A stretch of 4,507 bases of DNA from a virus. Taxonomy: Duplodnaviria; Heunggongvirae; Uroviricota; Caudoviricetes. The stretch lies in IMG/VR virus record IMGVR_UViG_2706794673_000010, one strand, 5' to 3'. Made by a program: the position numbers and the translations under genes. The notes beneath the pieces were generated by a model. That model made no database searches, was not told the DNA's origin, and was given only the letters and a program-made list of their open reading frames with translations. This document shows positions 1,337 through 4,507 of the stretch, one piece after another. Each line of letters opens with the position of its first letter. Within the stretch, counting starts at the first letter, position 1.

Positions 1337-2023
1337 TCACTCCTTCTCTTCTTTACCGTAGTGGAGTTGACCAATTTTGATAAGAGGGCGTCCCTGAGAT
1401 TTGCGGTGTAGATTGGTATCGCGCAGAGAATACACACAGCCACAATATTCCTGCTGATAGAATTTTTCGCGCTTGCTGATTTCAATCATACGGGACGAGC
1501 CGCCCTGCTTGCGCCAGTTATAATCCCAGTACACCATGCCCGGATAATGCGCGACGGCTCGCCGCCCACAGTCGTTAACCTGCTGCATATTTTTCCAGCG
1601 TGAAATGCCCAGTGAACTGCTGATCACACTGAAACCATTTTCAGCGGCGTACAGCGCTGTCCGCTCAAAACGCATGTCAAAACACATGGTGCAACGGATC
1701 CCTCGTTCGGGCTCCCATTCCATTCCTTTGGCTCGTTCAAACCAGTTGTCTGTGTCGTAATCAGCATCAATAAACGGCACGCCGTGTTGTTCAGCAAAGC
1801 GAATATTCTCATCCTTACGAATTAAATACTCTTTCTGAGGATGAATGTTCGGGTTGTAGAAAAAGATGGTGTAGTCGATTCCCGAGGCCTGAAGCGCCTC
1901 CATCACCTCACCGGAACATGGAGCACAGCAAGAGTGCAGTAGTAGTTTGTTTGCCCCGTTTGGGAGCTCCAATTTGGGCCGTTTGAAATCAGCAACTGTC
2001 ATAAATATGTTTATTGGGGTCAT
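1337..2023 (-). CDS. queH: DUF208 / QueH-like protein (epoxyqueuosine reductase family, Fe-S), 228 aa
   Basis: Uninterrupted 228-codon frame with TGA at 1339..1337. N-terminal [14 protein letters not shown] matches the cysteine motif I recall for DUF208/QueH, with further Cys at RCTMCF and YCGCVY. No clear Shine-Dalgarno before the ATG at 2023 or the alternative ATG at 2002 (MTVADF). Confidence 0.75.
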
Positions 2024-2584: not shown

Positions 2585-3007
2585 TCACAGTATCGCCTCC
2601 TGAAAATTACCCTGATAGAAAGCCAGTACACGCTGCATAGCTTCGCTCTTCCGGCACTCGCGACAGATTATATTCAGGCGCCTGTCGTAGCGGCGTATTT
2701 CTCCGTCAGGTAATGACCAGATAAGGTCCGGATCAACAACAACCGGTTTCCTCACCTTTACTCTCGAGAGTTTTTTGCGGGCGCTTTGCCAGTCCTTGCG
2801 AGCCTGTTCAGACGGGAATAAGCCGTAGCCAGAATTATATACATCACCACTTGCGACCAGTTCTATGCATAAGCGACCGACAGACGCACGACTGATACCT
2901 GTTTCATCTGACAACTGCCGAATCGTGACCCGACCGTCCTGATGCACGAGTTCCACAATTCGCGTCTTCAGTTCTTCCCGCTGTTCGGGAGTAAAAGGTT
3001 TCGCCAT
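2585..3007 (-). CDS. hypothetical helix-turn-helix protein, 140 aa
   Basis: ATG at 3007..3005 with AGGAGG 4 nt upstream, 14 nt after the DnaC-like stop. N-terminal segment TIRQLSDETGISRASVGRLCIELV looks like a winged-HTH DNA-binding helix pair; C-terminal CRECRKS. Stop TGA at 2587..2585. Confidence 0.65.
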   Translation of the reverse strand: MAKPFTPEQREELKTRIVELVHQDGRVTIRQLSDETGISRASVGRLCIELVASGDVYNSGYGLFPSEQARKDWQSARKKLSRVKVRKPVVVDPDLIWSLPDGEIRRYDRRLNIICRECRKSEAMQRVLAFYQGNFQEAIL

Positions 3008-3021
3008 AAATCCTCCTGAAA

Positions 3022-3699
3022 CTACTTAACAACCCTCGAATGGCTAACATTCGGACGCCAGCTCTCCCAGTTAAAATTCACCCAGCGNNNNNNNNNNNNN
3101 NNNNNNNNNNNNNNNNNNNNNNNNNNNNNNNNNNNNNNNNNNNNNNNNNNNNNNNNNNNNNNNNNNNNNNNNNNNNNNNNNNNNNNNNNNNNNNNNNNNN
3201 NNNNNNNNNNNNNNNNNNNNNNNNNNNNNNNNNNNNNNNNNNNNNNNNNNNNNNNNNNNNNNNNNNNNNNNNNNNNNNNNNNNNNNNNNNNNNNNNNNNN
3301 NNNNNNNNNNNNNNNNNNNNNNNNNNNNNNNNNNNNGATAGCTGCCGCTAAGTGATTCTTCCCGGTACCAGGTTTTCCGCTGAACGCAAAATTTGTACAC
3401 CCGGTCATCAGTTCATCGGCGATGGATTTCGCCTGGCTTAACGCGTATCGCTGGCCGTCGTTCTGCACCTGGTAATTCGCAAACGAGCATTTACGGTGCA
3501 ACGGCTGGATGCCTGAGCGATTCAGAATTTTTTCCACCCGCAACTGGCGATTCAGGCGGTTGATCTCCTCGCTACGTTTCTGGCCTTCAGCAAGTTGCCA
3601 CTCGCGCCACTCCGCTACCGTTCTGAATGGGGCGGTTACATGTGGCGGGGTCAGTCGGCGGATGCGTTCCAGAACGCCGCCTGTCGCAATATTTTTCAT
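3022..3699 (-). CDS. DnaC-like replicative helicase loader (phage P/DnaC family AAA+ ATPase); central part masked
   Basis: N-terminus MKNIATGGV...RSGIQPLHRKCSFANYQV and Walker A FSGKPGTGKNHLAAAI resemble E. coli DnaC as I recall it; C-terminus RWVNFNWESWR resembles the DnaC tail. The 249-nt N-run is a multiple of 3, so the frame is maintained. ATG at 3699, 6 nt after the upstream stop, preceded by AGGGGG. Confidence 0.85.
   Translation of the reverse strand: MKNIATGGVLERIRRLTPPHVTAPFRTVAEWREWQLAEGQKRSEEINRLNRQLRVEKILNRSGIQPLHRKCSFANYQVQNDGQRYALSQAKSIADELMTGCTNFAFSGKPGTGKNHLAAAIXXXXXXXXXXXXXXXXXXXXXXXXXXXXXXXXXXXXXXXXXXXXXXXXXXXXXXXXXXXXXXXXXXXXXXXXXXXXXXXXXXXRWVNFNWESWRPNVSHSRVVK
3088..3336. 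other. run of N (249 nt): masked sequence or assembly gap inside the DnaC-like gene
   Basis: Contiguous n characters. Confidence 1.
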
Positions 3700-4053
3700 G
3701 GTCCGTTACCCCCTGAAGCCTGGCGGGATCGCACTGTCCGGCAACGAGACGGTGTTAACCTGTCGGAGCAACGTCTCAGGCCGAACACCTTTCGGCGCGA
3801 ACAGGCCCTGGTATTCATTGGCGATGCTGTGTCGAATCACCTGCTCAGGTGTAAAACCCTGCTGACGGAATTTTTCCAGTTCCCGTATCGCCCCGTTAGC
3901 GCCCTGCTCCGTTCGAATCGGTTTTCGCAATGCCTGTCTGAACCGGACCCACTCATGCCAGAGTGTTTCCGGCAACCAATCGGGCAGCTCAATAGCCTCC
4001 GGCTCGAATTTTTTAGACGCTCGTTTTTGGCGAGGGGGAGATCAGTATTTAGA

Positions 4054-4074
4054 TCTTCCTCTTCCTCTTCCTCT
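4054..4074. repeat. hexanucleotide tandem repeat (TCTTCC)3 plus TCT, encoding a poly-Glu tract on the minus strand
   Basis: Plus strand tcttcctcttcctcttcctct; minus-strand codons GAG GAA x3 give EEEEEE in the initiator linker. Confidence 0.9.
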
Positions 4075-4180
4075 GGTAACGCTTTTTGATCCGTTTGTGT
4101 AACGCTGGCAGCGTTACCTTTTCGTTTCAGTTCGCGTATTTTTGTTACTCGCTCGTTTGTAACCGCCCGTTTTTTTTAGA
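4075..4180. other. candidate phage replication origin inside the initiator gene (palindrome, iteron-like repeats, T-rich tract)
   Basis: 19-bp perfect palindrome GTAACGCTG-G-CAGCGTTAC at 4099..4117, with a further GGTAACGC at 4075..4082. CGTTT-containing motifs start at 4092, 4123 and 4154 (31-bp spacing). T-rich stretch 4120..4190 includes T8. Lambdoid origins are known to lie within the initiator gene. Confidence 0.3.
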
Positions 4181-4382
4181 GCTTTTTCCGTTATGACGTT
4201 CAAAGTTAGGTAGAGAAAGCCCTCCGTCATTTTCGACCAGCCATCCAACCTGAATTAACGCATCAGCAAAACCAGACATAAAAGTGATGCGATCTATTGC
4301 ACTTTTTGTAACGCCGCGAGCGTTACAATCTGCATTACCGTCTATCATTTGTTGATCCGCCCATGCCCAGAAGCGAATAACC

Positions 4383-4507
4383 TGAGGTAGCCTGAGTTTA
4401 ACGGACACTCCTTCCTGAAATAGAATGGCATCAGAAGGAGCTAATAATGAGCAGAAAAACCCAACGTTACTCTAAAGAGTTCAAAGCCGAAGCTGTCAGA
4501 ACGGTTC
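4383..4507 (+). mobile_element. left end of an IS3-family insertion sequence (IS600-like), running off the window
   Basis: Begins TGAGGTAGCCTGAGTTTAACGGACACTCC, as expected for an IS3-family inverted repeat (TG...); the orfA start lies 64 nt inside. The boundary is estimated to within a few bp. Confidence 0.7.
4447..4507 (+). CDS. IS3-family transposase OrfA, N-terminal 20 codons (partial)
   Basis: AAGGAG 7 nt upstream of the ATG; translation MSRKTQRYSKEFKAEAVRTV matches my recollection of the IS600 OrfA N-terminus. Confidence 0.7.
   Translation, partial: MSRKTQRYSKEFKAEAVRTV

Follow-up and report, generated by a model that had tools for sequence, protein, structure and literature searches.

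Introduction

Initiators of the replisome organizer or DnaD-like type, such as G38P of phage SPP1, can have the origin (oriL in SPP1) within their own gene. The Reps of iteron plasmids, among them RepA of pPS10 and RepE of F, are winged-helix initiators whose recognition element occurs as direct and as inverted repeats, and the inverted repeats serve as Rep operators. In lambda the origin consists of iterons and an AT-rich tract and lies midway along the O gene (PMC7466680). The Rac prophage is reported to carry an active origin, oriJ (PMC3945230; Potrykus et al. 2000, as cited in PMC11014345). Here we describe a set of inverted repeats in 4,507 nucleotides of DNA from a tailed phage (IMG/VR record IMGVR_UViG_2706794673_000010); 'the window' below means the whole of this stretch. 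Its minus strand holds the replication module of a Rac-type prophage. The repeats lie in the gene for a YdaU-like replication initiator, and they probably make up the core of the origin from which the prophage replicates, which would thus be embedded in that gene.

Results

Palindromes and half-sites in the initiator gene

The initiator gene of the window survives as a remnant, which was defined by translation in three frames and by alignment to intact 789-bp (262-codon) genes in L001, L002 and L003. The intact reference genes are those of the prophage in E. coli FDAARGOS_944 (NZ_CP065613, 4295238-4296090), of 'phage Rac' MN652886 and of phage vB_EcoS-666R9, the first with 98% identity. The original prediction was of a candidate origin at 4020-4200, in the stretch coding for the acidic linker of the initiator, and both translation and alignment place the repeats there, on the minus strand. 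A reading of the sequence confirms the 19-bp perfect palindrome that was claimed, here called the L-site (GTAACGCTGGCAGCGTTAC), in which arms of 9 bp flank a central G. A second perfect palindrome, the N-site, lies beyond the range of the prediction (Table 1). The two occurrences of GTAACGC-N5-GCGTTAC in the window compare with 0.01 expected, and a check against shuffled sequence bears out their significance, two or more being reached in 0 of 200 shuffles. The half-site GTAACGC is present six times, compared with 0.34 expected. Of the two additional half-sites claimed within 4020-4200, one is exact (4076-4082) and the other, GTAACCGC at 4160, is imperfect.

At the position of the decayed half-site listed in Table 1, alignment shows GCGTTAC in ZX5 and TL-2011b. 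The conserved segment at 4155..4177 has low codon entropy at K104, R106 and L108; it could represent a weak site or belong to an A-tract. Its A-run is two nucleotides too long in the window, which shifts the frame. This run is the T-rich tract of the original prediction, present as T8 at 4170-4177; intact relatives have T6, the two additional T's being the frameshift mutation. The prediction also included CGTTT motifs with a period of 31 bp. The spacing is real (4092, 4123 and 4154), but the motif is not enriched (15 copies in the window against 11.9 expected), and the period is not conserved and was dropped from the element. The copy at 4092 falls in a 12-bp segment absent from the Uetakevirus-type homologues and the copy at 4123 is the decayed half-site, so that, with the lack of enrichment, the period appears to be incidental. 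A lone GTAACGC at 2214-2220 on the minus strand, within a 137-aa open reading frame (2171-2584), is a single copy and within chance.

Table 1. Location of the sites, lesions and genes in the window.
Feature	Position	Strand	Remarks
L-site, linker palindrome GTAACGC-N5-GCGTTAC	4099..4117	.	gene +367 in intact relatives; proposed core initiator-binding site
N-site, second perfect palindrome	4308..4326	.	209 bp from L-site; codes C-N-A-R-G-V-T, N-terminal domain loop
Extra half-site, sense GCGTTAC	4076..4082	-	abuts purine tract; read K-A-L-P, in a frame different from that of the palindromes
Decayed half-site, sense GAAACGA, 5/7 matches	4122..4128	-	11 bp from palindrome arm; intact half-site in other homologues
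Near half-site, sense GTAATGC, 6/7 matches	4332..4338	-	12 bp upstream of N-site; exact direct-repeat half-site in most homologues
Conserved segment, sense AAAAAA-CGGGC-GGTTAC-AAAC in intact relatives	4155..4177	-	codes KKRAVTN; from alignments
Purine tract AGAGGAAGAGGAAGAGGAAGA, 21 nt, sense strand (pyrimidines on +)	4054..4074	-	codes EEEEEE; longest purine run in gene
10-bp deletion, frameshifting	4033..4034	.	one copy of direct repeat AGGGGGATTT / AGGGGGAGAT lost
IS3-family insertion sequence, left end	4383..4507	+	homology to intact genes ends at about 4383
YdaU-like replication initiator remnant	3706..4383	-	codons about 36-262 of 262-codon gene; pseudogene
YdaV, IstB/DnaC-like helicase loader	3022-3699	-	directly downstream of initiator; middle masked by N
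DUF977 winged-helix protein	2585-3007	-	two genes downstream of initiator
QueH (epoxyqueuosine reductase, DUF208)	1337-2023	-	downstream of replication genes, prophage early region

Comparison with lambda

In lambda (NC_001416) four annotated iterons are found at O +349 to +433, followed by an 18-nt purine run in the sense strand (AAAAGAAAAAAGAAAAGA) at +453 and then by P. In L001 the L-site and half-site extend from +367 to +408, a 21-nt purine run begins at +411, and the loader gene follows. The annotated iterons bear out the parallel drawn in the original prediction, that those of lambda lie inside O at the equivalent position. In both cases the sites are symmetric, about 18-19 bp long, and located in the part of the gene coding for the linker between a DNA-binding N-terminal domain and a loader-recruiting C-terminal domain. 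The sites are followed by a sense-strand run of purines only, at nearly the same gene position, and the gene directly downstream is that of the loader, which in phage TL-2011b is a true homologue of lambda P (PF06992, E 2e-55). The differences are in the sequence of the sites; in their arrangement, here one full palindrome with half-sites on a 12-bp grid compared with four tandem iterons; in two extra clusters about 200 bp away, one in the segment coding for the DNA-binding domain and one upstream of the gene; in the tract, which is GA-rich rather than AT-rich; and in the DnaT-like C-terminal domain and DnaC-like loader. Homology to lambda O was rejected. The lambda O family model (PF04492, Phage_rep_O) gave no match to the intact protein at E below 0.1, compared with 6e-36 for lambda O itself, and hhalign of the family profile against lambda O returned a probability of 0.4%. 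The element is best read as an analogue of the lambda origin in an unannotated family, and not as belonging to a member of the lambda O family.

Conservation of the sites in homologues

A scan of IMG/VR proteins returned near-identical E. coli copies only, and diversity was obtained from a genome scan and a motif scan. For an unbiased sample, a protein-based scan with one genome per species gave 27 loci, from which two near-identical E. coli/Shigella copies were excluded to leave 25; several of the genes are truncated. The hosts include Mixta, Erwinia, Yersinia, Serratia, Pantoea, Rahnella, Samsonia, Planctomycetota, Saccharibacteria and Ignavibacteriae. The N-site (about +148/+160) is exact in 18 of the 25 loci and within two mismatches in 22, and the L-site (about +337 to +412) in 14 and 18, respectively. 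A third palindrome, the U-site, lies upstream of the gene (about -45 to -33), exact in 8 loci and within two mismatches in 10; in close intact relatives it has the sequence TGTAACGCTGCGAGCGTTACA, is non-coding and ends about 13 nt before the ATG. The element is therefore larger than 4020-4200, as it also takes in the site in the segment coding for the N-terminal domain and, in intact relatives, the U-site. Conservation of the repeats at this position in homologous initiator genes was the test named in the original prediction, and they are indeed conserved there: the positions of the palindromes are kept in homologues from Enterobacterales, Betaproteobacteria, Planctomycetota, Saccharibacteria and Ignavibacteriae.

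The Uetakevirus-type phages BUCT554, ZX5 and TL-2011b and the Klebsiella phage ST11-OXA245phi3.2 have 66-69% nucleotide identity in the N-terminal part of the gene. They keep both coding palindromes at a distance of 209-210 bp; the arms are invariant and the spacers vary. The same arrangement of sites is found in a 41-kb circular phage-like replicon from Pusillimonas (Betaproteobacteria). Most Enterobacterales homologues have half-sites at +148, +160 and +172. The exact half-sites fall on a 12-bp grid and always converge (-> -> <- <-). Inverted pairs are separated by 12 bp (43 cases), 24 bp (19) or 35/36 bp (12), pairs in the same orientation by 12 bp (18 cases), and trailing pairs by 23 bp (8 cases); no divergent pair at 12 bp was found among the exact half-sites of the homologues. 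The distance from N-site to L-site is 189, 195, 207, 209, 219, 231 or 264 bp. As these values differ mostly by units of 12 bp, and do not consistently correspond to whole helical turns, we make no claim of helical phasing.

Constraint at the DNA level and the purine tract

Codon entropy was calculated for 25 non-redundant homologues. Codons with their third base in a palindrome arm (GGT, AAC, AGC, GTT and TTA) had a median normalised entropy of 0.22, compared with 0.87 for 65 other columns in which the amino acid is conserved (Mann-Whitney p = 2.6e-5). At the half-site 4076-4082 the values for L136 (TTA) and P137 (CCA) were 0.0 and 0.13. The same 7-mer is read as N-A or V-T in the palindromes and as A-L-P at 4076-4082, and is non-coding at the U-site. 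The residues flanking the arms vary (G, C or S on one side, S or G on the other) and the bases are kept. The density of repeats was held in the original prediction to exceed what coding constraint alone would give, and the nearly frozen synonymous positions in the arms agree with this.

The last half-site is followed by GCGTTACC and then by a GA-only purine tract in the sense strand, an order which recurs in homologues of 38-99% identity. The tract takes the form (GAGGAA)n or (GAGAA)n in 18 of the 25 unbiased loci, at +330 to +520, and its length across the homologues ranges from 15 to more than 45 nt. It is read as EEEEEE in Enterobacterales; the reading in Planctomycetota, Pusillimonas and many environmental phages is EKRREEK or REEKEK. 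Because the translation varies in this way, the purine DNA, not the acidic peptide, is the conserved thing. We propose that the tract at 4054..4074 is an unwinding or R-loop-prone element. Formation of H-DNA through mirror symmetry was rejected as a general property on inspection, (GAGAA)n being a mirror repeat and (GAGGAA)n not.

The tract has the character of a microsatellite: genes that are otherwise alike differ in their number of GAGGAA units, from about 2.5 up to at least 10 (at least 10 in the IMG/VR contig L187; see also L005, L022, L024 and L033). An insertion of about 114 residues follows it directly in many homologues from E. coli and Salmonella (P0013 and some 45 similar proteins of 374-380 aa); no Pfam match was found for this insertion, which may be a mobile or accessory domain beside the putative origin. 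In a 376-aa homologue from a Gallionella metagenome-assembled genome (L031) the N-site is degenerate, and an insert with a Cys-rich CxxC motif precedes the GA tract, which lies as far downstream as +676.

The initiator and the link of the sites to its N-terminal domain

The protein matches PHROG 2509, 'replication initiation protein', with E 1e-89. Its AlphaFold model (mean pLDDT 68) has confident N- and C-terminal domains with a disordered linker (96-159) between them. The modelled N-terminal domain is composed of helices 16-25, 29-48, 61-68 and 73-80, followed by a beta-hairpin at 84-91. Both coding sites correspond to poorly structured parts of the model, the N-site to a low-confidence loop (54-57) and the L-site to the linker. 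No Pfam or NCBIfam family matched the N-terminal domain, and the intact Rac-type protein had no Pfam match at E below 0.1. Fold matches in BFVD included proteins with the names 'replisome organizer' and 'putative DNA replication protein' (E between 1e-4 and 1e-5), as well as DUF1376 proteins. The C-terminal domain is DnaT-like, as a PDB profile search found DnaT chains with E 4e-6 to 1.5e-5, and PF17948 (DnaT C-terminal) matches the homologues in TL-2011b (E 1e-18) and BUCT554 (E 3e-17). Since the loader-recruiting parts and the loaders themselves differ, DnaC-like in one case and lambda-P in the other, the N-terminal domain and linker recombine as a module.

A search with a 70-residue query gave 3951 representatives of 50%-identity clusters for the N-terminal domain, at E up to 0.001. 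The peptide motif NA..VT is present at least once in 114 of the 148 representatives retrieved and twice in 58 of the 138 with at least 200 residues, in most cases with ALPEKRREEK or ALPEEEEEE after it. Palindromes with up to two mismatches are found only in or beside the initiator gene in three phage genomes of 38.7-44.8 kb and in the Pusillimonas replicon, and half-sites elsewhere in the same four genomes occur at about the chance rate. In the reverse test all 120 of the IMG/VR stretches returned for the palindrome pair encode a homologue of the N-terminal domain over the pair, at 30-99% identity. No gene other than that of the N-terminal domain itself was found with the sites in each case examined. 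Some variant arms change in both palindromes at once: L026 and L032 (Planctomycetota) have CTAACG..CGTTAG at N-site and L-site, and L033 (Paraglaciecola) has TGTCACA at both. Such concerted, symmetric changes fit a dimeric DNA-binding protein which co-evolves with its sites.

In TL-2011b (L117 6617-8189) the initiator is this N-terminal domain joined to a PF17948 DnaT domain, with the lambda-P homologue following. Its C-terminal tail, LDWNNTDWIEGV, resembles that of lambda O (L239), LDLTNTDWIYGV, with a BLASTP E of 0.003 for the pair, and the tail may be a shared P-docking motif.

Comparison with K-12 Rac and other systems

The Rac prophage of K-12, with ydaU-ydaV and oriJ, is of the same prophage type and has the same gene order and a DnaC-like YdaV. 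The C-terminal 119 residues of its YdaU are about 82% identical to those of the present initiator (hhalign E 5e-47). The N-terminal domain is different in K-12, where it is annotated as belonging to the YdaU/DUF1376 family. That type was rejected for the present family, as the family profile aligns to K-12 YdaU over the C-terminal 119 residues only. At the DNA level only 3700-3963 of the window matches K-12-type genes. No GTAACGC is present in the ydaU of K-12 Rac. That gene (L115 2507-3364, minus strand) has repeats of its own, (A/G)TGTTCAAAC, at +147, +391, +425 and +448; two direct copies and one inverted copy are in the linker and one is in the part coding for the N-terminal domain, a layout which mirrors that of the element studied here. 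The TGTTCAAAC repeats are candidate oriJ iterons, and oriJ may lie there.

The likeness to iteron-plasmid Reps is in the winged-helix form of the initiator, in the use of a recognition element in both direct and inverted orientation, and in an inverted repeat at the start of the initiator's own gene, which would serve autoregulation. In contrast to these systems, the sites here are inside coding sequence and no sequence match to plasmid Rep families was obtained. A search of plasmids for a minimal replicon gave two records only, of which that from Pusillimonas is an entire phage genome and that from E. coli has a phage-like gene neighbourhood. Initiators of the SPP1 G38P type share the placement of the origin within the initiator gene, and the BFVD matches to proteins named replisome organizer point the same way, but no membership of that sequence family is detectable and the sites and GA tract differ. 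The E. coli DnaT-DnaC pair corresponds to the DnaT-like C-terminal domain and its DnaC-like partner; DnaT itself has neither an N-terminal winged-helix domain nor origin specificity.

Decay of the module and neighbouring genes

The initiator reading frame of the window is spread over three frames. The lesions are the two bases gained in the T8 homopolymer, the 10-bp deletion and the IS3-family element, which replaces about the first 35 initiator codons and the upstream U-site. Positions 4380-4437 have hundreds of matches in E. coli annotated as IS3 family transposase. All three lesions are private to the window copy, and its initiator is a pseudogene. The origin in the window is for this reason probably a fossil, which would be inactive unless a matching initiator were supplied in trans. 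A copy from Shigella flexneri (L008 2501-3269) has other lesions, its GA tract being 6 bp shorter and 11 bp being deleted, and as the two sets differ, the decay was independent in the two lineages.

The loader gene is interrupted by the second of two N-masked runs (991-1255 and 3088-3336), which takes out the middle of ydaV, including part of the ATPase domain. An intact YdaV homologue matches PF01695 (IstB_IS21) with E 1e-19. The QueH gene is placed likewise in the FDAARGOS_944 prophage.

Discussion

Positional conservation, constraint at the DNA level, confinement of the sites to one gene and their linkage to its N-terminal domain support the interpretation of the linker-coding region as an origin. 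From these observations we infer that the initiator binds the sites, that the helix unwinds at the GA tract and that the origin fires, as follows. In the initiator a disordered linker would join an N-terminal winged-helix domain to a DnaT-like C-terminal domain. Dimers of the N-terminal domain would bind GTAACGC-N5-GCGTTAC, and the converging half-sites on the 12-bp grid would extend the complex at the linker cluster. The N-site and U-site clusters, about 200 bp apart, could join the same nucleoprotein complex, or the U-site could add autoregulation. The helix would open at the GA-only tract after the last half-site, a step that transcription of the gene may assist, its mRNA being the purine strand. 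The C-terminal domain would recruit the loader and host DnaB, the loader being DnaC-like YdaV in this prophage type and a lambda-P homologue in the Uetakevirus-type phages.

Several observations weigh against this interpretation. An unwinding element that is clearly AT-rich is absent, as the A+T content of the linker is only 43-57%, and in place of one tight iteron array there are three clusters of sites at distances of about 200 bp. The structural matches of the N-terminal domain are modest, with nothing below E 0.2 in a Foldseek search against PDB, and the initiator of the window is inactivated. The literature searched contained no report of binding or of origin activity, and no description of these sites. 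In addition, the overlap of the upstream site with the ribosome-binding region is consistent too with a purely autoregulatory operator, and the variable loops and symmetric variant arms of the palindromes are consistent with an RNA hairpin.

A more far-reaching form of the origin interpretation is possible, although we consider it rather unlikely. The locus would then represent a distinct origin design, found across bacterial phyla, in which convergent half-sites on a 12-bp grid are locked to a GA-only tract in the transcribed sense strand and an R-loop formed by the initiator mRNA opens or primes the origin. If this were true, the initiator mRNA would form a stable hybrid of purine RNA and pyrimidine DNA, the peptides NAxSVT and ALPEEEEEE/ALPEKRREEK would be by-products of constraints on the DNA and not of protein function, and the segment coding for the DNA-binding domain would itself contain a binding site.

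Of the alternatives to an origin, the one that survives best, though it is unlikely, is that the sites are operators only, through which the initiator or another phage repressor shuts down the replication operon at the level of transcription or translation, the true origin being elsewhere. The position of the upstream site in intact relatives, over the Shine-Dalgarno region just before the ATG, is what an operator would have; the sites are confined to the initiator gene, and the operators of iteron-plasmid Reps are inverted repeats. However, of the three sites the upstream one is conserved least, and it is missing from loci in which the upstream gene abuts. The best-kept sites are 150-400 bp into the coding region, beside a conserved purine tract that an operator need not have, and the search for a sigma-70-like promoter nearby gave none. 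Position in the linker and exchange of repeats together with the N-terminal domain have their parallels in lambda and K-12 Rac.

It is still less probable that a protein other than the initiator's N-terminal domain, from the host or from another phage gene, binds the sites. A winged-helix DUF977 protein is encoded close by in the window, but it is neither annotated nor seen in the Uetakevirus-type and Pusillimonas genomes. C-terminal domains and neighbouring genes vary, and the N-terminal domain is the only constant companion, in 120 of 120 contigs. The hosts span several phyla, and a host factor is therefore disfavoured.

We consider it very improbable that the palindromes act as hairpins that control the stability or translation of the mRNA, or as an intrinsic terminator in antisense. 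Their stems of 7-9 bp have variable loops, the variant arms of L026, L032 and L033 retain pairing, and on the plus strand the L-site followed by CTTTTCGTTT (4099-4127, antisense to the initiator gene) scores like a terminator. A single such terminator on that strand compares with 1.6 expected, and the T-run is not conserved in homologues, so this candidate was rejected. Against hairpins in general, the sequence of the arms is itself frozen across phyla, not their pairing alone, and many extra half-sites are direct repeats on the strict 12-bp grid with no partner to pair with.

Coding constraint alone, with the repeats as a by-product of the peptide motif NAxSVT and the acidic linker, would explain why both coding palindromes are read in one frame as x-N-A-x-x-V-T and why NA..VT is widespread, but it is effectively excluded by the identical palindrome in non-coding DNA, the half-site in another frame, the frozen synonymous positions, the arms and GA tract being kept while flanking residues and translation change, and the coding of the sites for a low-confidence loop and a disordered linker.

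Implications

As the module has decayed, the biological consequence for the window itself is small. For the family, the putative origin provides a candidate for a large group of phage and prophage initiators which has no Pfam model. It would extend the lambda rule, that the origin lies in the initiator linker and travels with the N-terminal domain, to a non-homologous family that crosses phyla, and it makes a clear case of DNA signals shaping protein sequence. The element also offers a simple DNA signature for origin annotation, usable on prophages and viral contigs: a pair of GTAACGC-N5-GCGTTAC palindromes separated by about 190-265 bp, then GCGTTACC and the GA tract. The corresponding layout in K-12 Rac suggests a possible location for oriJ, at the TGTTCAAAC repeats.

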